From Patescibacteria group bacterium (lineage in GTDB: Bacteria > Patescibacteriota > Minisyncoccia > Phycocordibacterales > UBA1550), in contig JBBTWP010000003.1 of the NCBI GenBank assembly GCA_038062675.1, forward strand, positions 37,934 through 101,933: DNA of 64,000 nt. Reading direction: 5' to 3'. Of this stretch, positions 6,772 through 44,468 are shown piece by piece. The position numbers and the translations under genes are program-made. The notes beneath the pieces are model-generated. The model did no database searches. It was not told the origin of the DNA and was given only the letters and a program-made list of their open reading frames with translations. Position 1 is the first letter of the stretch. The number at the start of each line of letters is the position of its first letter.

Positions 6772-6972
6772 ATGGCAAAATCATGTCCAATCTGTAATAA
6801 AGGCACCATCATCGCGGGAGGTTACTCCAACCGCGTGCGTGCAACCAAGTTCAATCCTGTCGGAAAGAACCGCAAATACCCAAATCTTCAGTGGGCACCG
6901 CTCGCCGACGGCTCACGCCTCAAAGTATGCACTCGTTGCATGAAGGCCGGAAAACACTTGGAAATTAAGTAG
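6772..6972 (+). CDS. rpmB: 50S ribosomal protein L28
   Basis: 66 aa; 'CPICNKG...TKFNPV...PNLQ...KVCTRCMKAGK' is the L28 family pattern. Confidence 0.85.
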   Translation: MAKSCPICNKGTIIAGGYSNRVRATKFNPVGKNRKYPNLQWAPLADGSRLKVCTRCMKAGKHLEIK

Positions 6973-7040
6973 TTTATCAACTGCCCCCACAAAGAAAAAG
7001 GAGGTTGCCCTTGGGCAACCTCCTTTTTCTTTGTGGGGGC
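6891..7040 (+). repeat. Direct repeat copy 1 (rpmB 3' end plus terminator, ~150 bp)
   Basis: Near-identical to 7792..7941, with a few substitutions. The substitutions include compensatory changes in the hairpin stem and an inverted loop ('cccttggg' versus 'cccaaggg'). Confidence 0.9.
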
Positions 7041-7042
7041 AG
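6981..7042 (+). terminator. Long GC-rich hairpin terminator after rpmB
   Basis: 'ctgcccccacaaagaaaaaggaggttgccc ttgg gcaacctcctttttctttgtgggggcag' has perfect ~29-bp arms. Confidence 0.6.
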
Positions 7043-7076
7043 TTACCGAGGATCGTCCTTGTCACCAGAAGTAAAA

Positions 7077-7364
7077 CTACGTCAACTGCACACTCTTTCC
7101 TAATGCATGCGCAACACGATTAAGCGTTCCGAGTGAGATGCTGTGCTTTCCGCTCTCAATACGTGCAACAACAGACTGGGGCATTTGCGCCTTTTTTGCA
7201 AAAGTTTCTTGGGTCAACTTCTTTTGAAGGCGGAGATGCTTTATCTCGCTTGCAATTTTTAACCTAAAAAATTCTTCGTCGTATGCTTCTCTAAATTTTG
7301 GAGACTTTAATTGTTTTTTAAGTATTTGTTCAAACGTTTTAGTTTTTGGAAGTTTTTGTGCCAT
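7077..7364 (-). CDS. HTH XRE-family antitoxin (HigA-like)
   Basis: 95 aa; C-terminal HTH 'LTQETFAKKAQMPQSVVARIESGKHSISLGTLNRVAHALG' is XRE type. Lies immediately downstream of the toxin-like ORF. Confidence 0.65.
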   Translation of the reverse strand: MAQKLPKTKTFEQILKKQLKSPKFREAYDEEFFRLKIASEIKHLRLQKKLTQETFAKKAQMPQSVVARIESGKHSISLGTLNRVAHALGKSVQLT

Positions 7365-7416
7365 ATATTTGTGTTCCTATAATTATGAACCTATATTGAA
7401 ATGCGCCTAAATATTT

Positions 7417-7719
7417 TTATTTCATCATTTTATAAACATTCACTGCTCTCTGTATTTCCTGTGGTGGCGTCTTTTGAGTTTTCTTGATAAACCCTGATAC
7501 AAAATAAATTGCATCTTTCTTTACAAAGAAGAGAATTCTGTACCTTTTTACAATCAACTCGCGAATGGGACTTTTAAGCAATTTTGTATAAACATTATCA
7601 AAATTTGTCTCCATCATTTTGATACTTGCTGAGACTTTCGCGCGATCTGTTTCAGGAATTTGCTCAAAAAAGCTCAGTGCGTCATCAAAGAACTTAATGT
7701 TAAATTTCTTCACAACCAT
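7417..7719 (-). CDS. RelE/ParE-superfamily toxin, phage Gp49/HigB-like (DUF891-type)
   Basis: 100 aa; '...RYRILFFVKKDAIYFVSGFIKKTQKTPPQEI' matches the conserved 'hhhhhGFiKKTQKTP' C-terminal signature of Gp49-like addiction-module killers. Toxin-first order with a downstream XRE HTH gives HigBA-like architecture. Confidence 0.55.
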   Translation of the reverse strand: MVVKKFNIKFFDDALSFFEQIPETDRAKVSASIKMMETNFDNVYTKLLKSPIRELIVKRYRILFFVKKDAIYFVSGFIKKTQKTPPQEIQRAVNVYKMMK

Positions 7720-7791: not shown

Positions 7792-7941
7792 GTGGGCACC
7801 GCTCGCCGACGGCTCACGCCTCAAAGTATGCACTCGTTGCATGAAGGCCGGAAAACACTTGGAGATTAAATAATTTACCAACTGCCCCCACAAGGAAAAA
7901 GGAGGTTGCCCAAGGGCAACCTCCTTTTTCCTTGTGGGGGC
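7792..7941 (+). repeat. Direct repeat copy 2 (orphan duplicate of rpmB 3' end plus terminator hairpin)
   Basis: Encodes the same C-terminal peptide '...WAPLADGSRLKVCTRCMKAGKHLEIK*' as rpmB but lacks the 5' part of the gene. Hairpin at 7882..7943. Confidence 0.9.
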
Positions 7942-8031
7942 ACAAAACTATTTCAAAATTACACCACAAACCTTTTTCCCCAAGGTCTCACCTCGGGTGT
8001 CCACGAGGACGATCCTTACCATGGGCTATCT

Positions 8032-11000
8032 CTAATACACCTTAAAAATACCTTGAGTCCCATCGACGCCACCGTCGTCGCAATAATTTACAGCTGAGGA
8101 GGAAACGAGTTCAACTCTCTCTATTTTCTCTGTTTGCAACGTGCTGAGTCCTACTCGCTTTAAAATTGCCCTCATTAGTGGGAGTGACGGAACTGTCGGA
8201 TTTCCGGCATGTGCACAGTATCCACTTCCTGCGCCAGGCCATCCAGGGTAACCACTTCGCGCCCATTCACAATACTGACCTTCATATACTTCCGCAAGAT
8301 TGGCATTTTTAGCATAAGAGCACCTAAAATAGAGCGTAATAGGTGTCCGAATCGTCACCGTCACCGATTTTGACACGGTTCTATTATTGCCTCCCAAGCA
8401 TACTAATTTGTAAGTGTGGCTTGAGGTAAGGGACCCTGTATAATAAACCCCACCAGAACTAAACTTAACTCCATCCCAATCCCCCCCACCACCAGACCCT
8501 GTGCAGGAAATAACATCTTTTGACGACCACACGAGGGTTGTCTCCGCCCCAGCATAGGAAACATCGGGACTAGCGGAAGTCAACGTAACCGTCGGGTCCT
8601 TTATCTTTACCGTTATTTTCTTTTCCACAGAACCCGCGGCATTTGTACACGTTAGTGTATATGGAGTGTCCTTATTAATAGGGCTGAGTGTTTGTCCCGT
8701 AACGACAAAACTGGTAATATTTTGATTGTCATTCCACCCTGTAGCAGAGCAAGAATCCGCATTATAGACTGTCCATTCAATTTTTGGTGTCCCATTTAAT
8801 CCGATTTGAAAACAATCTCCATCTGAAGAACTGCAGGGGTTTAGTTTGTTTTCGTCAGCAACATATGTCGACTTGTCATGATTGGCGGTAAAGGATAGTA
8901 TCCCTGGTTTCACCTTTACGGTCACCGATTTCTCAACAAGACCACCGGGACCCGTACAGGTGAGAATGTAATTTGCCGTCTTTTGGAGTCCGGATATCGT
9001 CTGTTGCTTGCTCAATTCCGGCTTGTTTATGTCGTACACTACCCCACTCCACCCCCCAGACGCAGTACACGAAGTTGTGTCGGCAGAAGGATTCCAGAAA
9101 AGAGTGGCCGAGTTATTGTAATCCACGACAATACTAGGGTTACTGCCACTACCACTGCTTACATCAGTTGTGCCATTTACACCCTTTGCAATCAGCGTCC
9201 CCGTAGGAAGCGCAAGGAGCTTCACGGTGACAGGAGTGACAGATTTAGTCCCTCCGGGTCCTGTACAGCTCAAAGTATAAGTCTTGTAGGTGTTAGCAGG
9301 ACGCGTAATAGCCGCGACCGTACTGGTTCCAGAGACAGGCTTTGCTCCACTCCATCCACCACCTGCCGTACACTGTGTTGCATTTTCAATATTCCAGACA
9401 AGTTTGGGTTGTGTCCCAGAAACAATTTCTGTCGCCTCGGCATAAAAATCACCCTTAGGAAGAACTTTGATGGTCACTGACTGTGGTTTGGACTCCCCGC
9501 CGGCACCAGAGCAGGTAAGAACGAGTGCCTGCGTGGTGGTAAACGGACCCACAATCATCGTACCAGAAATCTCCTTTGTGCCACTCCAAGGTTTTGTCAA
9601 ATTCTCACCACCGGATGCAGTACATGAAGTGGCACCCTTTCCTGCTGTCCATGTGATATTGGTCGTCTCGCCGTCTGGCACCTGGTTCGGACTTGCACGC
9701 AAAGCACCTGCTGTCGGAAGGGCAACAACACTCACGCTGACTGATTTTGAAACTGAACCGCCCGCGCCCCGGCAATTTAGACTATACGTTGTTGCGCGAG
9801 TGGTAGGAGCCGGTGTTTCTGAGCCCGAAGATTCTTTCATGCCTGTCCACCCCCCAGATGCGGTACATGAACTCGTTCCCTCAGAAGACCATACGAGTGT
9901 AGGGCTTGTGCCATACGGGATTGATATTGACTCTGCAGAAAACTCCATTGTGGGCTTTACAGAAGGCGATCCCGCCAAAACTTGTGCTTCCACTCTTATG
10001 GTAACTGTCTGCGGAACAGAATCTCCCCCCGGTCCGGTGCAGGTTAAAATATACTTCTGTGTGGCAGTGAGTGGGCCAACAACTTCACTGCCTTCAGCTG
10101 TCTTCATGCCATTCCAAGCTCCGCTTGCCGTACACGAAGCTGCATTACCAGTAGCAGACCACGTGAGTGTTGCGTTGCCATTGTAGGGAACAATATTTGG
10201 CTCCGCAACCAGCGTCCCTTTTGGCACACCGAGCACTCTAACGGTTACCGACTTTGTCGTCACCCCTCCGCGCCCAGTACACTTTAGAACATACGTCTTC
10301 GAGGAGACAAGCGGACCAGTGGATTCCGTTCCTGTGGTTGCTTTTCTTCCACGCCAAGACCCAGAAGCATCACACACCGTCGCATCAGACGAAGACCATG
10401 CAAGGGTAGTGGTGCCTTTATAGGGCACAGGATTTGGCTCTGCAGTCAAACTCCCTGAAGGAAGAGGAATGACACTCACCGTCACCGAAGAAGTTACACT
10501 TCCACCCCGCCCTGTACATTTAAGAAGGTATGTCTTCGTTGACAACAATCCGCTTTCTTTTTGATTCCCCGCTATCTTTTTCTCTCCACTCCATCCCCCT
10601 GATGCGACACACGACTCGGTTTCATTCGACGAAGACCACGTAAGCATAGTGTTGCCATTGTAGGGAATAGGGTTTGGGCTTGCATCTAGTCTTCCTGTAG
10701 GAAGTGGGATAACATTCACCGTAAGAGACTCAACTAAAGACTCACCGTTTTCTCCGGTGCATTTCAGGTCATAGGTACGTGCGGAAGTAAGGGGACCAGT
10801 AGAGAATGTTCCTGAGGTTGCTTGCTTTCCTTCCCAACCGTCGAGAGCAAGACAAGAAGTACTGTTGACGGAAGACCATGAGAGAACTGCTTGGCCATTG
10901 TAAGGAACAATAGTTGAGTCGGCACTGAGCACGGCTTTGGGATAGAGAACCTCAGGTCGAGGTGCAAACGGTGTGGGAAACGGATCCACGAATGCGGTTG

Positions 11001-11112
11001 GTCCGTCTATGGGAGTTTTTGGGGTTGCCACCAAAACATAGGCAATGATTGCCCCCACAAGAACAATGACCACCAGTCCAATAATTTTAAATGCGAGAGG
11101 AATATCTTTCAT
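8032..11112 (-). CDS. Large cell-surface protein with N-terminal TM anchor and ~10 tandem ~85-aa Ig-like repeats
   Basis: Start at 'MKDIPLAFKIIGLVVIVLVGAIIAYVLVA' (hydrophobic anchor). Repeats follow the form 'PYNGxxxLxWSSxNATSCxASGGWSGxK...KTYxLxCTGxGG...VTVxV', each with two conserved Cys. The C-terminal ~100 aa is Cys/Trp-containing and non-repetitive. Confidence 0.7.
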   Translation of the reverse strand: MKDIPLAFKIIGLVVIVLVGAIIAYVLVATPKTPIDGPTAFVDPFPTPFAPRPEVLYPKAVLSADSTIVPYNGQAVLSWSSVNSTSCLALDGWEGKQATSGTFSTGPLTSARTYDLKCTGENGESLVESLTVNVIPLPTGRLDASPNPIPYNGNTMLTWSSSNETESCVASGGWSGEKKIAGNQKESGLLSTKTYLLKCTGRGGSVTSSVTVSVIPLPSGSLTAEPNPVPYKGTTTLAWSSSDATVCDASGSWRGRKATTGTESTGPLVSSKTYVLKCTGRGGVTTKSVTVRVLGVPKGTLVAEPNIVPYNGNATLTWSATGNAASCTASGAWNGMKTAEGSEVVGPLTATQKYILTCTGPGGDSVPQTVTIRVEAQVLAGSPSVKPTMEFSAESISIPYGTSPTLVWSSEGTSSCTASGGWTGMKESSGSETPAPTTRATTYSLNCRGAGGSVSKSVSVSVVALPTAGALRASPNQVPDGETTNITWTAGKGATSCTASGGENLTKPWSGTKEISGTMIVGPFTTTQALVLTCSGAGGESKPQSVTIKVLPKGDFYAEATEIVSGTQPKLVWNIENATQCTAGGGWSGAKPVSGTSTVAAITRPANTYKTYTLSCTGPGGTKSVTPVTVKLLALPTGTLIAKGVNGTTDVSSGSGSNPSIVVDYNNSATLFWNPSADTTSCTASGGWSGVVYDINKPELSKQQTISGLQKTANYILTCTGPGGLVEKSVTVKVKPGILSFTANHDKSTYVADENKLNPCSSSDGDCFQIGLNGTPKIEWTVYNADSCSATGWNDNQNITSFVVTGQTLSPINKDTPYTLTCTNAAGSVEKKITVKIKDPTVTLTSASPDVSYAGAETTLVWSSKDVISCTGSGGGGDWDGVKFSSGGVYYTGSLTSSHTYKLVCLGGNNRTVSKSVTVTIRTPITLYFRCSYAKNANLAEVYEGQYCEWARSGYPGWPGAGSGYCAHAGNPTVPSLPLMRAILKRVGLSTLQTEKIERVELVSSSAVNYCDDGGVDGTQGIFKVY

Positions 11113-11279
11113 GAAGTAATGTTCCGTGTTTACCGTCAATAACAATTGTCAGTAAACCTACCCCCTACAGTATACAAGCATCTTGATTTTTGGGCAATGC
11201 GAAATGTGCAAAACAAAAACCCCCCGAGGCAAAGCCTCGGGGGGTTTTTGTTTTGTTTGCATGCACAACTATATTATTT

Positions 11280-12623
11280 TTACTTCGAAGTAACTGTCTC
11301 AACTGTCTCGATACTTGGGAATCCTTTGCAGGTAAGGTTGAAAATGGCTATTCCAGAAAGTGAAACAGTTGAGAAACTAACCGCTTGTGTTCCTGAGAGA
11401 GCTTTTGCGCCACTCCAGTTGCCTGACGCCGCACATGAAACCGCGCCCACCGTTGACCATGTTACCGTCTTTGCTGGCCTGTTGATACTGAAGTTAACCA
11501 AAGGGGGTATCATGACCGAAGATGGAGCCGAGGTACCTCCAGGTCCAGAACATGTCAGAGAGAATGAAGTTGGGGAACTAATACCCGTGACACCCTGCTG
11601 TCCAGAGAGCCCTTTTCCTCCCGCCCATCCACCGGATGCAGCACAAGAAGTTGCGTTTGCAGATGACCAAGTAAGAGTTGCGTAGTATTTTGTAGTCAGC
11701 TTGCCCGCATTTTTGTACGAAAGGGATGCTGTTGGTGCAGAGATGGTAACGGTTACTGTTTTTGGAACACTTGCGCCGCCGACCCCATTGCACGTTATTG
11801 TGTAATCTCTTGGGGAAGTAGTTATGTTGGAAATCGTTTGATTCCCTGCAGTATCTATAGTTGTCCCCGCCCACGCACCACTAGTCGTGCATGAAGTTGC
11901 ATCAGTCGAGGTCCATGAAAGCACCGTGCTCCCCCCAAGAGAGACAGGGTTTGAACTTGCAGTGAATGATGTTACTGTTGGAACAGGAGGTGGGGAGACA
12001 AAGGGAGCGACAGTAATATTTATTACATCAATATCTATATCAGTAGGTTCAGTGCCCGCTCCTCTTGTACACGTTAAGGTATATGTGGCACTTGTCGTAA
12101 GAGTGCCAAGCGGTAAACTTCCTGAGAGTTCTTGTGGTCCCGACCAAGAAAGGGACTCTCCCCCAGACGCTACGCACAAATCTGCGTTTGTTGATGTCCA
12201 GCGGAGCGTAGTGGACTCTCCCCAAGCAACACTCGCAAGATCTGAATAAAATGTATCAATAGAGACAGGGGGAGAAGGAGGTGTGCCCCCGCCCACTGAT
12301 GGCGTCGTCCAACCTACCCCACTTGAAGTATACTCACCTTTTGCGTTTTGGGTTGGAGCGACAAACGTAAGCACTTGCCCCAGAGCCCCCCCAGGAACAA
12401 CAAGCCCTGTTGTAACCAAAACAGCGGGTTTTGAGGTGTCGCCACTATCAATGACCAAGTTTCCCTTCTTTGTCTGTTGTACACTTCCCGTCGTCAAAGG
12501 CGCATCCGCATTTCCATTGGGTGGTGCAGCAGTAGGAAGAACCCATGCTGAAGCAAAACTAATGCCAAACGATAGGATGACAGCAAGAGCAATGAGTTTA
12601 ACGTTTTGAGCGATGTTTTTCAT
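11280..12623 (-). CDS. Secreted protein with the same Ig-like repeat family (paralogue of 8032..11112)
   Basis: Signal peptide 'MKNIAQNVKLIALAVILSFGISFASA'. Repeats such as 'LxWxSTNAxxCxASGG...TLTC'. Confidence 0.65.
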   Translation of the reverse strand: MKNIAQNVKLIALAVILSFGISFASAWVLPTAAPPNGNADAPLTTGSVQQTKKGNLVIDSGDTSKPAVLVTTGLVVPGGALGQVLTFVAPTQNAKGEYTSSGVGWTTPSVGGGTPPSPPVSIDTFYSDLASVAWGESTTLRWTSTNADLCVASGGESLSWSGPQELSGSLPLGTLTTSATYTLTCTRGAGTEPTDIDIDVINITVAPFVSPPPVPTVTSFTASSNPVSLGGSTVLSWTSTDATSCTTSGAWAGTTIDTAGNQTISNITTSPRDYTITCNGVGGASVPKTVTVTISAPTASLSYKNAGKLTTKYYATLTWSSANATSCAASGGWAGGKGLSGQQGVTGISSPTSFSLTCSGPGGTSAPSSVMIPPLVNFSINRPAKTVTWSTVGAVSCAASGNWSGAKALSGTQAVSFSTVSLSGIAIFNLTCKGFPSIETVETVTSK

Positions 12624-12702
12624 AATATGATAAATGATGATTGATTAGATAATACTTCTTTAGTATATCAGTGTGGAAGCAGGAATACTATGTGGAGGTG
12701 TG

Positions 12703-12724
12703 GATAAGTGAGTTACCGAGGACG
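12703..12724. repeat. Palindromic motif 'TTACCGAGGACGGTCCTCGGTA' (copy A)
   Basis: Perfect palindrome. A near-identical palindrome 'TTACCTAGGACGGTCCTAGGTAA' occurs at 27760..27782. Degenerate halves occur at 7043..7059 and 8008..8025. Confidence 0.7.
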
Positions 12725-12731
12725 GTCCTCG

Positions 12732-12767
12732 GTATGTGGGTAAAAAGATAAGAGGCCTTGCGTGAGC
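12732..12767 (-). terminator. Rho-independent terminator after the lipoprotein gene
   Basis: The minus-strand read gives stem 'aagaggc...gcctctt' followed by a U-run (plus-strand 'aaaaaga'). Confidence 0.5.
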
Positions 12768-12798
12768 AAAGCCTCTTGAAATAAACAAATGTACAAAA

Positions 12799-14619
12799 CT
12801 AAGGGATGATTGCTTGAGTGTTAATGAAGGATCCCTCAAATTCCATTACTCTGATTTGGTTCCCTCCATCAGCATCAGCAATGGCAACCGGTGTATATGA
12901 AGAATCACGAAAGAATGAAGAGAAAAAGAAATCCTGTTGAAAAGATATCCTTCCATCTGATATCCACCGCGGACTGCTTCCCTCACCAATCTCCGTAAAG
13001 CCGGATCCATCTGTATTCACCGTAGCAAGGATTTCCTTTTCGTGCATAAAGGCGAAATCTTGCATCTTTGCAGGACTGCTGTAACCAAAAACCAACTTTT
13101 TTCCATCAGGTGACAGCGACATGCCAAGTTCCTGTCCACCCCAATTGACTATATGCCAATCTGCGCCCGTAATGACTTCCGTAATTGGACCCAGATCTCC
13201 CGTTGCCAGATCGATTGATCGCTTGAAGATACCGCACGCCGGACGACAAGAGGTAAAATATTCTTCCCTGCCATCACCAGAAAAGACCGCACTGTAGTCT
13301 TTGTAAGTATCATTGGTAACCGAACCGACCTGGTTAGGAGAGATGCGTGTAAGCAAAATATCTCTTGTTCCCTCAGAACTTACCCCACTGCAAGCGATTT
13401 CATTCTCACTGGGAGACAAACTCATACCTCCGCGACAATCATTACTTGAAACAATCTGCAACCCCTTGTTACATCCTGCAGACAAAGGAACAACTCCTGC
13501 CATATCGTCAGCTGTGCATCCTGCTCCATCTGTATCCAGAATACCCATCTTCTGGCTATTACTATCATTTGCCTTAAAGACAATCTTACCATTGCGCGAA
13601 ACAATTAAACCTTCACTGTAGCGACTAAGGTGAACAAGTGGCAAATAGGTCAAAATATCCTCTTTGCCTGTCTCCATGTCGAACCGGATGATTTCATCAT
13701 TTCTCACAAAAAACGCTTCCTCTGTTGCAATACGAGCAAAACCAACTTCCAAGGGAAACGTATTGGCAAAGACTATCCTCTGTTCCGTCGAAATATCCTT
13801 TACTTCAGAGATAGTAAAGACAACATCGCGGACGGCATCAGACACACCGAAAGGTGGTATTTCTGAAAAGCTTGCTTCCAAAATAATGGTCGCAACCTCC
13901 TGGTAAATGTAGGAACTAAAATCACCATCCACGCCACCAACTTGCCATAAAAAGCTGGAGACAGGATTACTAAGGATTAGTGATGCCTGTCCATTTACCA
14001 CGGTAGCTGTCACGTACTCCGTAGGATTTCCAAGGAAATCCCATTCATTTCGCGAAGTCCCTCTGGCTCTCACCTCTGTAACATACGGAGCAAGAGCACC
14101 ACTGACAGTCAGCACAACCCCTGAAGATGAAAATTTATTCTCAGGGAAAAAGTTGCACTGCCCAACCTTCACAAATCCTTGCGGTTTGCGAGAGATGAGC
14201 ACCCCAGGACCACACGAAGCAGCGACAGCAATAGGCGGAGGAATTGGCACTACAACAACAACTGACGCACTAACAATACCCTCACCAAGATCCATACACG
14301 TCAAATTAAGCGTATATGTTGTACCCGCATTTAGTCCAGACAAAGTGTAATTACTATTATTAACCGTGTAGCTTTTTTCCCACTCCCACCCGCTTGCTCC
14401 TGAAGCACTGCACGAGCTAACATTTGCTGTTGTCCAGGACAACTTTACACTTGCGGACGAACCAACAATAACTGGGGCACTTGCGACGAGCTCCAAGCTT
14501 GGTGTTGGCACTACTACCGGTGGCGGAGGCCCTGAATCAGACCCTCCCCCACTCTTACAACCAGCAACACCGAGAACCAGAACCGCGAAAAGACAGACTG
14601 CCTTTGAGAGCGTCTTCAT
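12799..14619 (-). CDS. Lipoprotein: one Ig-like repeat plus a TolB/PD40-like beta-propeller region
   Basis: Lipobox 'LVLGVAGC'. One 'LSWTTANVSSCSASGASGWEWEK...TYTLNLTC' repeat, then PD40-like 'SPDGKKLVFGYSS' and 'SVSPDG'-type blades. Confidence 0.6.
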   Translation of the reverse strand: MKTLSKAVCLFAVLVLGVAGCKSGGGSDSGPPPPVVVPTPSLELVASAPVIVGSSASVKLSWTTANVSSCSASGASGWEWEKSYTVNNSNYTLSGLNAGTTYTLNLTCMDLGEGIVSASVVVVVPIPPPIAVAASCGPGVLISRKPQGFVKVGQCNFFPENKFSSSGVVLTVSGALAPYVTEVRARGTSRNEWDFLGNPTEYVTATVVNGQASLILSNPVSSFLWQVGGVDGDFSSYIYQEVATIILEASFSEIPPFGVSDAVRDVVFTISEVKDISTEQRIVFANTFPLEVGFARIATEEAFFVRNDEIIRFDMETGKEDILTYLPLVHLSRYSEGLIVSRNGKIVFKANDSNSQKMGILDTDGAGCTADDMAGVVPLSAGCNKGLQIVSSNDCRGGMSLSPSENEIACSGVSSEGTRDILLTRISPNQVGSVTNDTYKDYSAVFSGDGREEYFTSCRPACGIFKRSIDLATGDLGPITEVITGADWHIVNWGGQELGMSLSPDGKKLVFGYSSPAKMQDFAFMHEKEILATVNTDGSGFTEIGEGSSPRWISDGRISFQQDFFFSSFFRDSSYTPVAIADADGGNQIRVMEFEGSFINTQAIIP

Positions 14620-14837
14620 AGTAAACCTCCAGACACATTGAGTTGAGATGGCACCGTGCCATCATTGATTGACAAGGTACTCTTTCTTCCATATAAGAAA
14701 ATTTCCTTTATGTAGTATATCCAATTACAGATTGTAATCTGAAAGATTATGTTTGTCAAGGGGGGGGTTATCCACAGTGGGGGCTACGCGCTATTTTTAA
14801 CAAACGATAGGGGCGCGACCGTGGGCCGCACCCCCTG

Positions 14838-15710
14838 TCATTTGTGCTCCCCACGCACCGTTTCCCCATCACTCTTAAAAATGAGTGTCCCTTGTTCGGC
14901 AGTGCTCCGCGCAGAAATCTTCAATTCTTCCAAAAGCGCAGTCACTTCTTTGTGTGGGTGCCCATACTTGTTGTCTTTGCCTGCGGAAATGATTGCGTAC
15001 TCTGGATTTACTGCCGAAAGGAATTCACACGAGCTCGATGTGCGCGAGCCGTGGTGCCCCAATTTCAAAACATCAGTTTTAAGTAGACCACCCTCCCTTC
15101 CCACCAGATACTTTTCGATAGCGATGGGCGAATCCCCCGTAAACAAAAAAGAGGTGTTGCCATACGAGAGTCGCGCAACAATTGAACCCATATTGGTTTC
15201 CCACCCTGCAGTACTTTGGGCAGGGAACAAAATTTCAAGCACCACACCCTCGTCGAGAATAATGCGTTCGCCAGTGCGTGCCAAAATCCGCTTCGCATGT
15301 TCGCGCTCGATGGCATTCTCAAACGCAGCATATGCTCCCGTATCCGATGTGTTCTCGGTCGTCACCACACCATCCACACTCAGACGGTCGAGCACTGACG
15401 GCAACCCACCAACATGATCTTGGTCAGGGTGCGTCGCCAGCACGAGATCAAGCGAACGATCAAAAAACGGCATGACACGCCCAAGCGGTCGCAAGATCGC
15501 CCCACTCGACACACCACCATCAATCAGCATTTGATTCCCGTTCGGCGCTTCTATATAAATAGCATCTCCCTGCCCCACACCCAGAAACGCCACCGTCAGC
15601 ACACCATGCCGATCCGCGCGCATCGTCGCAGTCCAAATAAAAATATTGAGTACCAACAAAATGCCGAGCACTGTCCACGATGCATAATGTTTTGAAATTG
15701 TGCGATTCAT
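14838..15710 (-). CDS. Membrane-anchored metallo-beta-lactamase fold protein, ComEC C-terminal-domain-like
   Basis: 'LATHPDQDHVGG' (HxHxDH-type) and 'LKLGHHGSRTSSS' are typical of the ComEC/Rec2 MBL domain. N-terminal TM helix. Start chosen at the 'MNRTIS' ATG to avoid overlap with the divergent gene. Confidence 0.6.
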   Translation of the reverse strand: MNRTISKHYASWTVLGILLVLNIFIWTATMRADRHGVLTVAFLGVGQGDAIYIEAPNGNQMLIDGGVSSGAILRPLGRVMPFFDRSLDLVLATHPDQDHVGGLPSVLDRLSVDGVVTTENTSDTGAYAAFENAIEREHAKRILARTGERIILDEGVVLEILFPAQSTAGWETNMGSIVARLSYGNTSFLFTGDSPIAIEKYLVGREGGLLKTDVLKLGHHGSRTSSSCEFLSAVNPEYAIISAGKDNKYGHPHKEVTALLEELKISARSTAEQGTLIFKSDGETVRGEHK

Positions 15711-15759
15711 AAATCCACCATACTGAATTCTGCCAACATGATATGATGGGTATATTACC

Positions 15760-16353
15760 ATGATTCCCGACACATCCATCGAAACCATTATCGCCTTCGC
15801 AGGTTATGCAGGAATTTTCCTGCTCATGATCGCAAACGGGGCGGTGTCATTTCCATCAAGCCAAATCCTCTACATCATTGTCGGGTACTTCATTGCACAG
15901 GGTGACCTCGCGCTCGTCCCCGCAGCGCTCGCTGGTTCGGCAGGAAACGCCGTGGGTAATGTCATCCTCTATGAACTCGTTCGTGCACGTGGTCGCGCAT
16001 TCGTCGAGCGCATGAAACTTTTCCCCGCACGCGAACTCGCAAAAGTCGAAATCGCATTCAAGAAAAAAGGTGCGTGGTTTGTTTTCATCGGCAAGCTCCT
16101 CCCTGCTATCAAAGTGTTTGTCCCCATTCCCGCCGGACTCGGCAAAATGCACCGCGGATGTTTTGCGAGCATCATGTTTGTCGCATCATTTATTTGGTCG
16201 CTCGGCTTCATCTCCATCGGCTACTTCTTTGGCAAGTCATCTGACCTCTTTGGCAAATACGCCATCGTCCTCGTCATCGTCGCCGCACTTGTCCTCCTCT
16301 TTTTCTACCGCTACATCAACAGCGAAGAAATCGTCCGCGAGGTGGAGAAATAA
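15760..16353 (+). CDS. DedA / VTT-domain (SNARE-associated) membrane protein
   Basis: 197 aa with multiple TM helices and a DedA-like core 'FIGKLLPAIKVFVPIPAGLGKM'. Confidence 0.6.
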   Translation: MIPDTSIETIIAFAGYAGIFLLMIANGAVSFPSSQILYIIVGYFIAQGDLALVPAALAGSAGNAVGNVILYELVRARGRAFVERMKLFPARELAKVEIAFKKKGAWFVFIGKLLPAIKVFVPIPAGLGKMHRGCFASIMFVASFIWSLGFISIGYFFGKSSDLFGKYAIVLVIVAALVLLFFYRYINSEEIVREVEK

Positions 16354-16370
16354 ATTCCACTCTCAAAATC

Positions 16371-18185
16371 CTAAACCTTCAAAACTGCATCCAAAAAATT
16401 TACAATCTTTGGGTATGCATCGAGGCGATTCTTTAATTTTTTCAACCCGTGCCCCTCGTCGGCATACACCAAAAGCTCTGATTTTTTTCCTGATTCAATA
16501 AGTTTTTTGTGCATCTGCTCCGCCTCAGAAAGTGGCACACGCGGATCATTTGCTCCGTGAACGATGAGGAGTGGCGCTTGAATGTCTTCAATAAAATTGA
16601 TGGGCGAGATTGATTGCAAAAATTCGCGGTCGGTCGCAAGTGAGCCGTATTCCGCCTCCCTATTCTCGCGCCGGTATGGCGATGTGTTTTCGAGGAATGA
16701 AACGAAATTTGAAATTCCCACAATATCAACACCCGCTGCCCACAACTCGGGACGAAACGTCAGCCCTGCGAGCACCATGTAGCCACCATAGCTAACGCCC
16801 AAAAGCGCAACCTTCTTCGCATCAAATCTCCCGTCTTGCTCCAAAAACTTGTGAAAATACTCAAGGTCTGTGACGGAGTCCATTCTTTTTTTTACATCAT
16901 CAAGCGCCATATAGGCCTTGCCGTACCCAGAACTCCCGCGTACGTTCGGCAAAACTACCGCATATCCATGATGCACAAAGTATTGAGCAAGAGCATTAAA
17001 CCTGGGGCGGGATTGATCAGTAGGACCACCATGAATGTCAACAATAACGGGAATTTTTTGCCCGCTCGATTGGACTTTTGGCGTATACACAAACACGGGA
17101 ACTTGCAACCCATCAAATGACGGATATTTCACGAGCTCGGGCTCCACAAAAACTTCCTCAGGAACGCGACGCGGACTATGAGTAATTTGCCAATATTTAT
17201 TTTCCTCCTTGGACCACACCCACACGTCGCCATTTTTTGCTCCACTTGCTAAAGAAAAGGCAATGTGGCTCCCATCAGACGACCATGTTGCTCCACTTAT
17301 CATCCCTTTAGGAAAGTTTTGCTTGCTGACCGGTTGCAAATTTTTTGTTTCATAAACCGTAAGCGTGTTGTATCCATCTTTATTGACCATCACCATCAGA
17401 TGTTCCCCATCTCTGGTTATACTAATGCCATCAATGTCATGCTCCGGCACCAGCACATACAAACTCTTTTTGGTGGCAAGATCAAAAAAAGATACTCCAC
17501 AAAAATCCCGACCTCTATTTTGCACAAAAAAGAAACCACGCTCATCAGGAAGCCACCTTGGTGGCCCAATGATACCTTTTTCGTCTTCAGGAGTGAGGAG
17601 CTCAGCAACACCACTTGCAACATCCACAAGGTGCAAATCATTTCTTCCTGCTCCATAATTTTTCGTCACCACCAACTTACTCCCCGTCGGTGAAAAACTA
17701 TAACTCCAACACGAGCCACCCTCACCATAGACCATCCGAGACACCCCCGTTTCAACATCCATTATGTACACATCGACATCTTTCCCGTTCCGAACATTAG
17801 AGTGGTAAGTAATAAATTTTCCATCACGGGACCAGCCACCAAAATTATGAAATGCTGTTGGCTCACTGGTGAGCATGCGCACCGACTTCGAGGCAACATC
17901 AAGTAGAAAAAGTTGCACATTTTCGTTTCCTCCTTTTGCCATACCGAACACAATTTCGTTGTTAATTGGGGAAAATGAAACAGACGAAACAGAATCCTCA
18001 TATGCAGTTAGCTGCTCGGGCTCACCTCCGGTACGAGGCACGACATAAAGCTGGAACACTCCCGTCACGTTGCTCAAAAACGCCACCGTGTTTCCATCAG
18101 GACTGAACGACGGAGCTACCGCAGACTTGATATCCAAAAAATCTTCAATAGTATATTGTGGTTGCATAAATGGTATTTTAATCAA
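16371..18185 (-). CDS. S9 family peptidase (prolyl oligopeptidase / acylaminoacyl-peptidase type): N-terminal beta-propeller plus alpha/beta hydrolase
   Basis: Nucleophile elbow 'GVSYGGYM' (GxSxGG), downstream 'HGANDPRVP' and 'DEGHG' (Asp and His of the triad). PD40-like propeller repeats in the N-terminal half. Confidence 0.75.
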   Translation of the reverse strand: MIKIPFMQPQYTIEDFLDIKSAVAPSFSPDGNTVAFLSNVTGVFQLYVVPRTGGEPEQLTAYEDSVSSVSFSPINNEIVFGMAKGGNENVQLFLLDVASKSVRMLTSEPTAFHNFGGWSRDGKFITYHSNVRNGKDVDVYIMDVETGVSRMVYGEGGSCWSYSFSPTGSKLVVTKNYGAGRNDLHLVDVASGVAELLTPEDEKGIIGPPRWLPDERGFFFVQNRGRDFCGVSFFDLATKKSLYVLVPEHDIDGISITRDGEHLMVMVNKDGYNTLTVYETKNLQPVSKQNFPKGMISGATWSSDGSHIAFSLASGAKNGDVWVWSKEENKYWQITHSPRRVPEEVFVEPELVKYPSFDGLQVPVFVYTPKVQSSGQKIPVIVDIHGGPTDQSRPRFNALAQYFVHHGYAVVLPNVRGSSGYGKAYMALDDVKKRMDSVTDLEYFHKFLEQDGRFDAKKVALLGVSYGGYMVLAGLTFRPELWAAGVDIVGISNFVSFLENTSPYRRENREAEYGSLATDREFLQSISPINFIEDIQAPLLIVHGANDPRVPLSEAEQMHKKLIESGKKSELLVYADEGHGLKKLKNRLDAYPKIVNFLDAVLKV

Positions 18186-37894: not shown

Positions 37895-38617
37895 TTACAC
37901 AGCATACATCTCTAGTTTGTCCTTCACTTTTTCCCATTTTGGGTATTTTTCATCCAAAAATTGTAAGAACTTTTTATCATGGTTTTTATATTTTACATGA
38001 CACAATTCATGAGTAATAACGTAATCAATACAATCTTTAGGCACGTGTATTAATTTGGGGTTAAGGATAATCTTATCCTTATTCACAAAGCTCCCCCACC
38101 GACGTTTCATGTCTAGAAGTTCGAGTTTCGGCATATTTTTGTACTCAAAATTCTCCATTACTTCTTCAAATCGCTCTTGGAATACTCGAGTCGCTTTCTC
38201 TTTGTACCACTCAGAAATAAGTTTCTTAGTATGGTTGCTGTCCGACACAGCTCTTGTTGTGCGCACCAACAACACTCCCCTCAAAAGCGAGACCTCCTCC
38301 TCAAGCGCACGCTTCACAACAAGCTGGTGTTGTCGACCTAGGTAATAAAAACTTTCCCCGGAAACATACTCTTTTTTATGCTCTTTCCGCTGATATTTTC
38401 CAAAAAAAGCTAGTTGTTTTTGCATCCAGAACCACTTTTTTTTTAAAAAAATTTCTATACGATCCTCGCTTGCGCGATAAGGACATTTTACGCATATCCG
38501 CAAGTCTGGCATAATCGTAAGGCTCAATGTTTTTCTATTTTGTTTTACGAGATCATAACAATAGACAAAAGAGCCGTATATAAATTCTTTTCTTTCTGAA
38601 CTAGGAAAAGATTTCAT
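37895..38617 (-). CDS. DUF45/YgjP-like M48-family zinc metallopeptidase (R-M-associated)
   Basis: 'YVITHELCHVKYKNH' HExxH motif in a ~240-aa protein. This family is classically located directly downstream of hsdR. Confidence 0.65.
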   Translation of the reverse strand: MKSFPSSERKEFIYGSFVYCYDLVKQNRKTLSLTIMPDLRICVKCPYRASEDRIEIFLKKKWFWMQKQLAFFGKYQRKEHKKEYVSGESFYYLGRQHQLVVKRALEEEVSLLRGVLLVRTTRAVSDSNHTKKLISEWYKEKATRVFQERFEEVMENFEYKNMPKLELLDMKRRWGSFVNKDKIILNPKLIHVPKDCIDYVITHELCHVKYKNHDKKFLQFLDEKYPKWEKVKDKLEMYAV

Positions 38618-41600
38618 AATTATTTTCAGATAATAACATTACATTAGCGATGATTTTTTTCATATCCTCGTCGGAAAGTTCAATGCCTTTTTGTTTTTTC
38701 ACAACATCATACAGGTAATCATCAATTGTATTTATTATTCGCCTTTTAACATCAGCATTTTTATGCCAATCAACGATCGCTTCATGTTTTACAATGTTGA
38801 AAGTATCAATGATAACAGAAACAAAAACTTCTTCCTTTATTTCGAAACCTTTAAAGTTTCCACGAAGATTGCGGTAGAAAATATCAGATCCTTTGTTTTC
38901 TTGAATAAGTACAGGGATGCTATCGTCTTTCTTTTGAACAACATCATCCTTAGCTAACTTCATTTGCCGTAACGCTTCGACGTCCGCGAGTTTCCCGTCG
39001 CGCATTCTCTGCAATATCTCAGAAATTTTCTTTGAAAAACGATCGTAGAACTCAGGGTCAGTATCCATTTTCTCAGTGATTGTTTTTTGGGTTTGTGCAG
39101 CAATTGCCTCAGCTTTAGATTTATCGGACCCAAGGTCTTCAATTGCCTGTTCGAATTGCTTACGGTCAGTGATATTGATTTGCTTGGTTAAAAGCTCCAC
39201 TCCGCGTGCATCAACATATTTATCAAGAATATTTACAAGCGACTGTTTGTACTCAGAGAGATTAACCCGGTCTGCATATTTAAGGCTGGCGGTCTTGCGA
39301 AGTTCCATAAATTTCTTGAGCTCCATCTTATACATATCAAGATGCTTAAACTCATGCACAAAATCCTGAAGCACGAAACATTCATTAAGATTTCTTATAA
39401 ATGAGTTGAGTGACTTATAAAAAATCTCACGCTTTGGGGCATCATTAAGAAGTCGCAAAAATGCTTCGTCATCAGATGACCCCTTGATCTCCTTGAAAAC
39501 ATCGTGCACTAAGCTATAACTCTGTTCGAGTTCCTGCACCTTTTCAGCAACATCAATAAGTGCCCCCTTAACATCACTTTCATCATAATTCCCAAAAAGC
39601 TTCATCGCCATATTGATGTTCTTTGCATTCTCCGAGTAGTCAACAATATACCCCACCGTCTTTGGAAGTTTTTTATTTTCATAAAGACGATTCACCCTCG
39701 CAATTGCTTGGAGTAAATTGTGATCTTTTAAATCTTTGGCAAGATAAAGGACTGTGTTGCGCGGGGCGTCAAAGCCAGTTAAAAGTTTATCGACGACAAT
39801 AATCATCTCAATACCGTCCTCGTTGTGCTTAAAGCTGTCAATAACATCCTTCTCGTACTTCGCGACACTGCTGTGATGTTTGCGAACCCCATCAAGATAC
39901 CCCACAACTTCCTTTTTGTGTGTGTCTTCTTCGTCACCATCATCATGTTCATCAGAAATAACTACAGCAGTACGAACATTCCCTCGAGTTTCAAAAAACT
40001 TTTGAAACAATATGGCTGAGTATTTAGATGGTGCGACAATCTGCGCCTTGAGCCCGGTATTTTGGAAGTATTCAATGAAATGATTCTCAATATCATACGA
40101 AATTTCAATGATTCGTTGTGGATTATTCTTAATAATCTTCGTCCCCGCATATCTCTGCAATTCTTTTTTCTGCTTATCATTCAAATCCTGAGTAATACGC
40201 TCCATGTGCCGATCAATCTGTTCTTCATTTTGCGTCAAATCAACATATCTCCCTTCATAAATAAGTGGCAAAACAATTTTATCTGCAAGTGCATCGTCAA
40301 TCGTGTATGTATCAATATATCCACCGAACTTTCTCCAGCTTTCTTTCTCGCCTTTCATGAGAGGAGTGCCAGTAAAGCCTATGTAGCACGCATTTGGGAT
40401 AATACGATTCATTTCCAGGCTCGCAATACCACCCTGACTGCGGTGTGCCTCATCTATCAAAACAAATATATTTTGATCAGTATCAACAAGCCCTGTTTTC
40501 TTTTTTGCGGCAGACTCAAATTTATGCACAAGAGTAGTTATCACCGCAAGATTTTTTTCTTTAATAAGATCAAGGAGTTCCTGTCCGCTCATGGCCTGCA
40601 CCACCTCTTTTTTCAAATTACAATTCTTAAAGGTGTCTTTAATCTGTTTATCCAAGTCCTTACGATCAGTGACAATGATTACGCGCGGATTACTAATGTG
40701 TGGATTTTCAATAAGCGCCTTAACAAACATCACCATCGTGAGAGATTTACCAGACCCCTGTGTGTGCCAAACGAGCCCGCCGCGACGGCGAGGGGCACCC
40801 CTAACAACCTCTTTTTCTCCAATCCGCTCCATCATCTTATGAATTGCAAAATACTGTTGATAGCGCGACAGTTTTTTCACTCCTGCATCAAAAAGCGTGT
40901 AGTTTTTAACAAGGTCAAGAAGACGAGCAGGTTCAAAAAGCGCAACGATTCCCCTATCCTGCTCTGTCGGAAGTCGTTCAGTTTTTTGTACATGCCCTTC
41001 CGTATATCCGTTGAGATCAGTCAAAATCTGTTCGTAAACAGACCCATCAATCTTCTTCGCGATTAAAGCAATTACTCGCTTGTTTACGTCTTCCTCCGAA
41101 GTCCCTTTTTCCTTCCATCCCGCATAAAATTTATTCAGCGTCCCTGTTGTCCCATACAGTAGTTCTTTACTATTAGTCCCCACAAGAAGCTGTGCGTAAG
41201 TAAAGAGCTTTGGACAAAATTCGGAACCTTGGTTGCGATTCATTTGGTTCAAAGCTTCAACAACATCAACGCTTGATTTCTTGTTCTCAATAATCGCGAA
41301 CGGAATACCGTTCACAAAACACACAACATCGGGACGAATGTTCTGCTTCCCACTAACAGCAAACTCCGCCGTCACATGAAAAGCGTTGCTTTGGGGATTC
41401 TCAAAATCGATAAAACGGAAATTTTTTGACATTGTTTTTCCTCCCGCACTCACTTTAATGGTCTTGCCTCCGCTTGTCGGCATAATGATGTTAAAAATTT
41501 TCTGCGCGGTATCAATAAGCCCCTCGTATTGAATATGTTCGAGCTCATCAATTGCATCGCGCACATCTTTCTCACTAAATTTATATTCTCTCCCGCGAAC

Positions 41601-41783
41601 CTCATACCCATTGATATCCATGAGCTTTTTCTCGGCAATATCAGCAAGAATGAAATTGCTTGTGTCTCCACCACGCTGACGCAACGTCTCTTCAGCAGAA
41701 ATATATTTGTACCCCATTGCCAAAAGAAGCTCCAGTGCCGGAAGTTGAGATTGTTTTGCTTCGTCGAAGTGTACTTTTTCCAT
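38601..41783 (-). CDS. hsdR: Type I restriction enzyme R subunit
   Basis: 1060 aa with an HsdR_N nuclease region ('VVCFVNGIPFAIIENKKSS'). SF2 helicase motifs 'VWHTQGSGKSLTM' (Walker A) and 'VLIDEAHRSQ' (DEAH). Confidence 0.85.
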   Translation of the reverse strand: MEKVHFDEAKQSQLPALELLLAMGYKYISAEETLRQRGGDTSNFILADIAEKKLMDINGYEVRGREYKFSEKDVRDAIDELEHIQYEGLIDTAQKIFNIIMPTSGGKTIKVSAGGKTMSKNFRFIDFENPQSNAFHVTAEFAVSGKQNIRPDVVCFVNGIPFAIIENKKSSVDVVEALNQMNRNQGSEFCPKLFTYAQLLVGTNSKELLYGTTGTLNKFYAGWKEKGTSEEDVNKRVIALIAKKIDGSVYEQILTDLNGYTEGHVQKTERLPTEQDRGIVALFEPARLLDLVKNYTLFDAGVKKLSRYQQYFAIHKMMERIGEKEVVRGAPRRRGGLVWHTQGSGKSLTMVMFVKALIENPHISNPRVIIVTDRKDLDKQIKDTFKNCNLKKEVVQAMSGQELLDLIKEKNLAVITTLVHKFESAAKKKTGLVDTDQNIFVLIDEAHRSQGGIASLEMNRIIPNACYIGFTGTPLMKGEKESWRKFGGYIDTYTIDDALADKIVLPLIYEGRYVDLTQNEEQIDRHMERITQDLNDKQKKELQRYAGTKIIKNNPQRIIEISYDIENHFIEYFQNTGLKAQIVAPSKYSAILFQKFFETRGNVRTAVVISDEHDDGDEEDTHKKEVVGYLDGVRKHHSSVAKYEKDVIDSFKHNEDGIEMIIVVDKLLTGFDAPRNTVLYLAKDLKDHNLLQAIARVNRLYENKKLPKTVGYIVDYSENAKNINMAMKLFGNYDESDVKGALIDVAEKVQELEQSYSLVHDVFKEIKGSSDDEAFLRLLNDAPKREIFYKSLNSFIRNLNECFVLQDFVHEFKHLDMYKMELKKFMELRKTASLKYADRVNLSEYKQSLVNILDKYVDARGVELLTKQINITDRKQFEQAIEDLGSDKSKAEAIAAQTQKTITEKMDTDPEFYDRFSKKISEILQRMRDGKLADVEALRQMKLAKDDVVQKKDDSIPVLIQENKGSDIFYRNLRGNFKGFEIKEEVFVSVIIDTFNIVKHEAIVDWHKNADVKRRIINTIDDYLYDVVKKQKGIELSDEDMKKIIANVMLLSENNYEIFS

Positions 41784-41787
41784 ACAA

Positions 41788-42627
41788 TTATATTAATTTT
41801 TTCTTGCTTGGTGGTAAATAATTATCACCCGTCACGACCTTTTTACCCGTTTTTTCTTCTAATGCCACCCGCGCGTCTTTTGCAATTTTTCCGCCACGCT
41901 TTGCGGGTATCTTATTTTCCTCAAGACCTTTTGCTTCCATATTCTCCGCAATCTGGCGAGTAGAGAGCTCAGCGAGTGCGGTAAAGATGAGTTCAGCTTC
42001 TGACATATGATCACGTAAATTTGTAGACTTGCCCAAACCTTTTACTTTCTTATGATCTTGCACACCCAGATCGCTCCATTCGTGATGAATAATATTTGTA
42101 AGAATTGCATATCCTTTACCTTCTTCTACTCCGGCATCTTTCCAATAATCGGTAAGCTTGTTGCGAGTTTCCTGCCCCATCATTCTCTGCTGTATCCATT
42201 TATCACTTCGTCCGTGCTTCTTCCAATACTCGCGTGAACGATTGAGGGCAAGCTCTGGGTTCATCATTTCATCGATTCGTTCTTGCCCCACCTTTGCAAG
42301 CCATTGTTTAAACGGTTCTGCTTTTGGTGACGGAATAGATTGAATAATACGAAAAATACTCTGTAGATTAGCCACATCGGTAAGATAGCTTTTACCATCA
42401 AGAGACATCAGTTTCAGTTGTCCGATTTTCTCGGACAACTGACTTCCCTCGTCCTTAAGCTTTCTTTTGAGATCATCCCAGTATTTTCTAGGCCTTTCAC
42501 TTCCTGACAGGACTGCAACAACATCAATCACAGAAAAATACCACTGCTCGTGATGCCATGTTCTACGGACATCTTTTTCTTCAAAAATCGCTGGCGTAAT
42601 ATTCCTTTTTGTTTGTGGTTTTTTCAT
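41788..42627 (-). CDS. DinD / Bro-N-domain family protein (DNA-damage-inducible protein D-like)
   Basis: 'FEEKDVRRTWHHEQWYFSVIDVVAVLSGSERPRKYW...' plus C-terminal '...LRDHMSEAELIFTALAELSTRQ' parallel E. coli DinD ('FEEIRHY...EFWSARELAPLLGY' and 'DHMGSTELAANLFRATQ'). Start set at 'MKKPQTKRNIT' (42627) to avoid overlap with hsdS. Confidence 0.5.
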   Translation of the reverse strand: MKKPQTKRNITPAIFEEKDVRRTWHHEQWYFSVIDVVAVLSGSERPRKYWDDLKRKLKDEGSQLSEKIGQLKLMSLDGKSYLTDVANLQSIFRIIQSIPSPKAEPFKQWLAKVGQERIDEMMNPELALNRSREYWKKHGRSDKWIQQRMMGQETRNKLTDYWKDAGVEEGKGYAILTNIIHHEWSDLGVQDHKKVKGLGKSTNLRDHMSEAELIFTALAELSTRQIAENMEAKGLEENKIPAKRGGKIAKDARVALEEKTGKKVVTGDNYLPPSKKKLI

Positions 42628-42631
42628 AAAG

Positions 42632-43864: not shown

Positions 43865-44468
43865 GTTTTAGTCTCAATCTTTCTGGCAGAAACCAGTCAA
43901 TCTCTTCATCCGACAAAGTAAATTCTTCTCCTTGGACCTCTCCTCTTTTATTTAGTCTTTTCTGTGCTTCGGTATATTCTTTGGGTCCAGTTTGTGGAGC
44001 AAGATCACTGATGACCTGGTACTCTCTTTGCAACAAGTCTCTTCGAGAGATAATTTGGTCCGTGGGGACTGATTCACTCATAACATCTGCAATTAATGAA
44101 CGATAAGCATCTCTAAGTCCCATATACTTAAGAGCTGAGTTTTTATGCATAACTACTCGTTGTTCAAAGCTGAATGTAAGCTGGATGATAAGAAAAATTA
44201 CTTCAGCAACAGTAATCCCAGCACCTATATATGAAAACAAAAGAACTTCTGGCTTAGTAGCTTGGATGATCAATAAAATTAAAACAATAGAAACTAATAC
44301 AATGTTTACTATCTTAATAGTGAATACATTTTTTTCTTGATTTTCTGCAGCAACTTCTTGTACTTTGTGAGTAAAGACTGTACTTGCAAATGATTGTCTA
44401 ATGATTGAAAGATTTTCTTTGTTCATATATTTAAAATTTAGATCCATAAATTTCTCTCCACTTGCCAT
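43854..44468 (-). CDS. SLATT-like 2TM effector protein
   Basis: ~200 aa with exactly two adjacent TM helices ('FTIKIVNIVLVSIVLILLII', 'LLFSYIGAGITVAEVIFLIIQLTF') after a short N-terminal region. Polar C-terminal tail. Sits directly downstream of, and overlapping, the SMODS-like NTase. Start may be an internal ATG (44447 or 44426). Confidence 0.5.
   Translation of the reverse strand: MASGEKFMDLNFKYMNKENLSIIRQSFASTVFTHKVQEVAAENQEKNVFTIKIVNIVLVSIVLILLIIQATKPEVLLFSYIGAGITVAEVIFLIIQLTFSFEQRVVMHKNSALKYMGLRDAYRSLIADVMSESVPTDQIISRRDLLQREYQVISDLAPQTGPKEYTEAQKRLNKRGEVQGEEFTLSDEEIDWFLPERLRLKHEK

Follow-up and report, generated by a model that had tools for sequence, protein, structure and literature searches.

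Three neighbouring genes of a Patescibacteria genome encode candidate surface proteins with a two-cysteine immunoglobulin-like stalk module and variable distal parts

We analysed three neighbouring minus-strand open reading frames (ORFs) in a 64,000-nt stretch of contig JBBTWP010000003.1 (hereafter the window), namely A (8032-11145), B (11280-12623) and C (12799-14619), which belong to a member of the Patescibacteria (candidate phyla radiation, CPR), represented by a metagenome-assembled genome apparently from groundwater. The locus codes for three candidate surface proteins with distal parts that vary between relatives, and we put the probability that A, B and C are fibrillar-adhesin-like surface proteins at about 0.6: conserved bases combined with variable tips make fibres of this type the most likely function. 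To our knowledge, little is known about host recognition and attachment in CPR/Patescibacteria beyond type IV pili. All three products would be envelope proteins displaying immunoglobulin (Ig)-like stalk modules (10, 4 and 1, respectively), and they would reach the surface by an N-terminal membrane anchor (A), a Sec signal followed by a Parcubacteria-specific N-terminal module (B) or a lipid anchor (C). The genes and their parts are the following (all on the minus strand; a slash marks the end of a signal peptide):

8032..11112: gene A (MEK7538631.1, AAB552_02200), 1026 aa from ATG 11112, with a predicted N-terminal signal-anchor, 10 Ig-like repeats and a 105-aa tip
11026..11091: hydrophobic segment of A, FKIIGLVVIVLVGAIIAYVLVA, Kyte-Doolittle maximum 3.19, the sole such segment
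8350..10929: array of 10 two-Cys Ig-like repeats in A (profile search; fold from AlphaFold2/Foldseek)
10711-10929, 10471-10689, 10234-10449, 9991-10212, 9727-9942: A repeats r1-r5 (profile search)
9463-9702, 9217-9447, 8911-9144, 8602-8823, 8350-8583: A repeats r6-r10 (profile search)
8035..8349: distal tip of A, 105 aa, Cys/aromatic-rich, sequence confirmed in the independent assembly L093
11280..12623: gene B (MEK7538632.1), 447 aa, a Parcubacteria-type leader module, then 4 Ig-like repeats
12294..12623: leader module of B, signal peptide aa 1-26 (...SFASA/W) plus conserved mature N-terminus WVLPTAAPPNGNADAPLTTGS..QTKKGNL...GQVLT...W
12024-12251, 11742-11966, 11505-11717, 11283-11495: the four Ig-like repeats of B (array 11283..12251; profile search)
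12799..14619: gene C (MEK7538633.1), 606-aa predicted lipoprotein, one Ig-like repeat plus a beta-rich region of ~480 aa
14557..14619: signal peptide and lipobox of C (...VLVLGVAG/C, Cys21)
14248..14487: single Ig-like repeat of C, aa 45-124 (profile search)
12802..14247: variable C-terminal region of C, aa 125-606, beta-rich, a deeply diverged cassette relative to the homologue P0123

A profile built iteratively from a single repeat found 10 copies in A (aa 73-932, numbered on the 1037-aa ORF) and 4 in B (aa 125-447), all with independent E-values of 1e-19 to 1e-32. When it was run against the full set of 794 six-frame ORFs in the window, it found one copy in C (aa 45-124, 7.6e-8), and no ORF apart from these three scored. 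The counts of 10, 4 and 1 copies in three adjacent ORFs, as well as their coordinates, had been given by a first-pass annotation of this DNA and were borne out, as were its description of the N-termini (A with one strongly hydrophobic segment, B with an AxA-type signal peptide, C with the lipobox VAGC) and, fairly well, its repeat length of ~85 aa (the core has 74 aa, and successive copies start 237-267 nt, or 79-89 aa, apart). The 15 copies in the window share only 24-58% pairwise protein identity; W18, C27, W33 and C58 are invariant in 15/15, and the module is recognised by the signature L-x-W-S..NAT-x-C-x-A-S-G-x-W-x-G ... Y-x-L-x-C-x-G-x-G-G with its invariant Cys pair. Both cysteines are also kept in 1110/1110 homologous repeat instances that cover both columns (121 proteins), a conservation from which an intradomain disulfide is probable. 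An N-A-T sequon (profile positions 22-24) stands directly before the first Cys in ~65-69% of 1119 homologous copies; it may serve for glycosylation or form a structural turn.

Structure prediction gave the Ig-like beta-sandwich that the first-pass annotation had expected, and no non-Ig fold: AlphaFold2 on the 15-copy alignment returned seven beta-strands in two sheets with a mean predicted local distance difference test score (pLDDT) of 93.2, and the model matches solved Ig, fn3 and PKD domains. All Foldseek matches in the PDB were Ig-type sandwiches, the top ones being Ig-like stem domains of Aureispira GhpA (PDB 9g8b, 9fls, 9flp; E 5e-3, TM-score 0.65-0.71, 20-25% identity), with ICAM-1 D1, collagenase PKD domains, the Deinococcus HPI S-layer protein and an archaeal S-layer PKD domain further down. 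As modelled, the fold is generic and no one structural family stands out. The S-layer matches, together with the S-layer-like envelopes reported for CPR cells, could speak for Ig-like arrays that form or decorate a protective lattice without any specific partner. We think such a structural role quite improbable, as three anchoring modes and a membrane-anchored rod of ten domains are unlike a self-assembling lattice protein, the families of A and C are rare and lineage-restricted, and variable distal ends, described next, favour interaction over packing.

In all three proteins the part predicted to lie close to the cell is conserved between relatives, and the distal part is diverged or swapped. 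The identity of protein A to its ortholog P0005 is 62-76% in aa 51-650, drops to 30-46% in aa 650-925 and is ~20% in the last 110 aa, with the flanking M50 peptidase, S12 and S7 at 80-89% identity in the same comparison. For C, the comparison with P0123 (window 12750-14712 vs L002 1-1979; one comparison sequence) revealed a mosaic: the 93 nt upstream and codons 1-128 have a nucleotide identity of 88-95% and differ by few synonymous changes, protein identity is ~40% in codons 129-606, where third positions are saturated (0.26-0.50), and similarity returns directly after the stop codon, across the terminator. This pattern suggests a deeply diverged allelic cassette, one that was either replaced or hyper-diverged in close relatives whose flanks stayed closely similar. 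For B, the gene upstream of the A ortholog on the syntenic contig L001 has a B-type leader (66% identical over aa 1-50) joined to tail-fibre-like cargo without Ig repeats. Divergence or swapping of distal parts is what would be expected if the distal ends touch a variable partner outside the cell. We therefore favour a model in which disulfide-braced Ig-like domains with short Pro-rich linkers would form a stalk holding a distal element off the cell, i.e. the 105-aa tip of A, the end of B, or the ~480-aa, probably PD40-propeller-like region of C, and in which these variable elements would contact something outside. An Ig domain usually measures ~4 nm in length, which would give the ten domains of A a rod of ~35-40 nm.

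Fibrillar adhesins have been defined as proteins with a stalk, an adhesive domain and an anchor (Monzon et al. 2021, PMC8286594). Tandem stalks are present in A and B (10 and 4 copies, gaps <35 aa), and sequence features, namely the N-terminal hydrophobic segment of A and the lipobox of C, predict anchoring. A-C resemble fibrillar adhesins in their predicted surface anchor, tandem Ig-like stalk, short Pro-rich linkers and fast-evolving, distinct distal end; they differ in that their stalk domain lies outside the catalogued Pfam stalk families and that adhesion is here what we infer. Anchoring of A by an N-terminal membrane segment would also be unlike anchoring by LPxTG, T9SS (type IX secretion system) signals or autotransporters. 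Several points weigh against the fibrillar-adhesin-like reading. Pfam recognises no adhesive domain in any of the three proteins; for the tip of A, neither a match in Pfam, PDB or PHROG nor another detectable homologue was found, in line with the earlier remark that the C-terminal domain of the largest protein has no assignment; AlphaFold2 on whole C with two sequences gave an unusable model (pLDDT 38.5); and the gradient comes from few relatives, namely two orthologs of A, two homologs of C and a handful for B. In addition, the module is uninformative on adhesion, because elsewhere it occurs mostly with hydrolases in free-living bacteria. We retain the earlier suggestion of an adhesin or host-contact locus for its variable distal ends.

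GhpA, the grappling hook protein of Aureispira, is a 5898-aa heptameric T9SS substrate on the outer membrane, whose many successive Ig-like repeats, each slightly different, make up a rigid stalk for a distal binding module, and whose disulfides link neighbouring domains (10.1101/2024.01.29.577165). A-C are like it in having a run of Ig-like repeats as stem and cysteines for disulfides, here probable ones, with the weak fold match given above. Unlike GhpA, they are only 447-1026 aa long, have the Cys pair within one domain and carry no T9SS signal: Pfam yielded neither Por_Secre_tail nor any other T9SS match in A-C. A hook of this type would be expected to have PorP/PorE-like partners, and the genes around A-C are unrelated. 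A search of PDB sequences with the repeat profile gave no match to GhpA. Many homologs bear the JGI name 'trimeric autotransporter adhesin', which we disregarded, as Pfam finds no YadA-type domain in A-C.

The first-pass annotation had left room for the repeat to be a known annotated domain family, and no catalogued family was found, since the repeat has no significant Pfam or NCBIfam match in any of the three proteins. fn3 (PF00041) reached 13.3 bits against a cut-off of 25, in C only and below the gathering threshold; with a maximum E-value of 1, the other Pfam matches in A-C were DUF6970, NOMO1-like_9th, DUF4249 and PD40, and no Ig-like family (PKD, Big) reached threshold. DUF5979 (PF19407, a 104-position model), a stalk family built by Monzon et al. 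(PMC8286594), gave no match at E<1 in any of them. Its partial matches in homologs are confined to the first half of the model, and the labels 'DUF5979' and 'DUF4249' on homologs turned out to be sums of faint partial matches with 0 domain-level stretches passing. Against PDB sequences the repeat profile gave only marginal fn3 matches, and a literature search on the motifs gave nothing relevant. Judged from its matches, the two-Cys Ig-like stalk domain is a widespread family without a Pfam or NCBIfam model: more than 1076 proteins matched among 8000 candidates scored, the homologous proteins hold a median of 9 and a maximum of 17 copies, and a genome scan with the consensus repeat confirmed at least 201 loci (a scan with one actual repeat gave nothing, its 8-mers being too specific).

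The majority of these loci belong to free-living Gammaproteobacteria (Steroidobacteraceae, Chromatiales, Methylococcales, SAR86) and to Burkholderiales including cultured Duganella; further ones are found in Planctomycetota, Acidobacteriaceae, Gemmatimonadales and Bdellovibrionales. CPR carriers are Taylor-, Nomura-, Colwell- and Kaiserbacteria and Saccharibacteria, and there is one Aenigmatarchaeota genome. Being common in free-living Proteobacteria, Planctomycetota and Acidobacteriota, the module is not CPR-specific and alone says nothing about episymbiosis, a lifestyle with which the first-pass annotation had found the cluster in keeping. It is also confirmed on 11 IMG/VR viral contigs (L082-L092), and the array of A (aa 283-563, window ~9457-10297) matches the PHROG 'virion structural protein' families phrog_2155 (E 1.2e-23) and phrog_29022; phages may spread the module between phyla. 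Elsewhere the array precedes apiosidase-like, GH5 or GH26 catalytic domains, PG_binding_1 or DUF11. From these contexts we conclude that the module is a general-purpose extracellular spacer or stalk, across phyla and in phages. It resembles the fn3, PKD and Big spacers of extracellular glycoside hydrolases as a tandem beta-sandwich of ~75-90 aa with homologs adjoining GH5, GH26 and apiosidase-like domains, and is unlike them in staying below all Pfam gathering thresholds and in having a signature of its own, with only faint fn3 echoes in sequence.

The leader of B defines a second family. An exhaustive HMMER search found it at the extreme N-terminus (residue 1) of 1663 representative clusters (a word-indexed search with the 121-aa leader gave almost nothing), with the consensus MKNITQxLKIIALAxVLSFGxSYVYA/WTAPTxxPPxGNxxAPxNTGxxxQxKxGxL and a conserved mature part extending over the first ~35-80 residues. 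The named members are Nomurabacteria, Yonathbacteria and the Parcubacteria group. Their cargo is varied and includes two-Cys Ig repeats, Gly_rich_2, fn3, YadA_head repeats, Peptidase_S74 tail-fibre chaperone domains and EPTP-like repeats; the leader itself has no Pfam, NCBIfam or PDB match. YSIRK, KxYKxGKxW and ESPR are specialised conserved signal peptides of surface proteins, and the B leader is comparable in combining a conserved signal peptide and mature N-terminus on otherwise unrelated surface proteins of one lineage. It differs from them in its unrelated sequence and in the conservation that reaches ~35-80 aa into the mature protein. We know of no sorting machinery for it. A tentative extension, possible though doubtful in our judgement, is that the locus is part of a Parcubacteria-specific surface-fibre display system, in which the leader would be a dedicated sorting or attachment signal for swappable cargo, the lipoprotein and the rod would exchange or hyper-diversify their distal cassettes, and the whole would serve as a host-recognition toolkit of episymbionts. 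A-C themselves are of an expected kind, namely tandem Ig-like surface proteins; the leader family with its swappable cargo and the mosaic lipoprotein allele are the more interesting leads. Models for the two sizeable families exposed here without Pfam or NCBIfam models, the stalk domain (>1000 proteins across phyla) and the leader, would improve the annotation of many 'hypothetical' surface proteins.

Protein C has the lipobox [LVI][ASTVI][GAS]C of bacterial lipoproteins at Cys21, identical in P0123 and similar ('ILAGC') in the 592-aa homologue on L095. A word-indexed database search found only one homologue of its ~480-aa region (42% identity). The first-pass annotation had seen a TolB-like propeller there. 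TolB itself does not hold, because the TolB equivalog model TIGR02800 gives 25 bits against a cut-off of 343, and a PD40-like propeller stays plausible, with signals around or below threshold: PD40-like blade motifs lie in aa 387-585 (12865-13461), and PD40 scores 20.0 bits on the whole protein (cut-off 20.9) and 23.5 bits on the C-terminal fragment, as a single repeat only. An hhalign comparison with the propeller of an S9 peptidase encoded upstream aligned four 'S-x-S-P-D-G-x-x-(I/L/V)' blade motifs, weakly and at a probability of 3.8%. This alignment, like the apiosidase-like, GH5 and GH26 domains behind homologous arrays, would fit a nutrient-acquisition scaffold, with the Ig-like modules as spacers and the distal region of C or the tip of A binding or processing peptides or polysaccharides for uptake. 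Such a scaffold seems unlikely to us: no catalytic or known substrate-binding domain was detected in A, B or C, a deeply diverged cassette in C and cargo swapping in B would be unusual for housekeeping uptake proteins, and the leader family of B carries adhesin-head and tail-fibre domains.

The repetitive protein architecture had also led the first-pass annotation to propose DNA-level tandem repeats as a substrate for copy-number variation, i.e. a contingency locus in which slippage or recombination makes the repeat number vary between strains. This proposal is effectively refuted. Tandem Repeats Finder reported 0 DNA-level tandem repeats, and in even the best families of repeated DNA the identity is only 60-79%, in stretches of 109 nt or less. 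Repeats r1-r7 of A are 60-78% identical to the repeats at the same positions of the orthologs P0004 and P0005, their identity to the remaining repeats of the window is no higher than 58%, and this positional orthology implies that the array predates the split of the lineages and was not homogenised by concerted evolution. The orthologs have 10 (P0005) and 11 (P0004) repeats, the additional copy being at the C-terminal tip, and L093 (ENA sample ERZ1292630), which matches the window at 99.98% identity across 9038 nt, agrees with it in gene order and in gene lengths (606, 447 and 1026 aa). Neither near-identical tandem DNA repeats nor length polymorphism between strains was thus observed. The antisense ORF at 9467-10186 that the first-pass annotation ascribed to the repeats does exist; the repeats are not its cause, because the longest stop-free antisense stretch in gene A, 0.24 of gene length, lies at the low end of the range in 16 other window genes (0.20-0.57).

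Gene A most likely starts at ATG 11112 (MKDIPL...), because the NCBI record and both orthologs start there; the maximal ORF from TTG 11145 would give 1037 aa. The segment at 11026..11091 is predicted to be an uncleaved signal-anchor with the remainder of A outside the cell, and the orthologs show no conserved AxA site at this N-terminus. Where A has its tip, P0004 carries an 11th repeat, divergent and with insertions, and P0005 shows only fragmentary repeat matches. By its position relative to P0004 the tip is plausible as a divergent 11th repeat, one that the repeat profile does not detect (score -0.5). A frameshift origin of the C-terminus was rejected, as no alternative frame resembles the ortholog tails and L093 independently has the same sequence. 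Metagenome scans gave no more orthologs of A. The only two differences between the window and L093 in the 9038 nt lie 14 nt apart, at positions 9175 and 9189; both are nonsynonymous (A->S, N->K), and they fall in the linker before repeat 8, where the divergence of A from its orthologs starts.

The order of a B-type gene followed by an A-type gene recurs in L001, and in L095 two leader-family genes come after the gene of a C-type lipoprotein, which shows 32% full-length identity. Each of A, B and C has its own terminator-like hairpin and promoter-like site, so that they look like linked yet separate transcription units. The signals are, e.g. (minus strand):

12750..12777: terminator-like hairpin after gene C, -19.4 kcal/mol, position and sequence conserved in L002
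11220..11244: likely bidirectional terminator after gene B, a strong GC hairpin flanked by runs of A and of T (44-nt segment, -35.3 kcal/mol)
14731..14759: promoter-like site upstream of gene C, TTGACA-17-TACAAT, 11/12 consensus matches

Upstream of C (14838-18185) are genes for a membrane-associated protein of metallo-beta-lactamase (MBL) fold, a VTT/DedA-family protein and, 1.7 kb from C, the S9 prolyl-oligopeptidase, whose PD40 beta-propeller is clear; in L093, too, the genes for the MBL and VTT proteins adjoin the cluster. Just downstream of gene A lies a Gp49-like/HTH_3 toxin-antitoxin pair (7077-7719), flanked by a 142-nt direct repeat of 94% identity (6900-7041, 7801-7942), each copy of which ends in a perfect palindrome with a 29-32-bp stem (6979-7044, 7883-7942). 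The absence of the pair from L001 suggests an inserted cassette; the L093 assembly breaks at the 142-nt repeat. Farther along the window, the region at ~38000-46000 has a GC content of 0.37-0.42 compared to 0.44-0.51 elsewhere and holds a 1060-aa ORF (38601-41783, minus strand) with a 334-aa antisense ORF.

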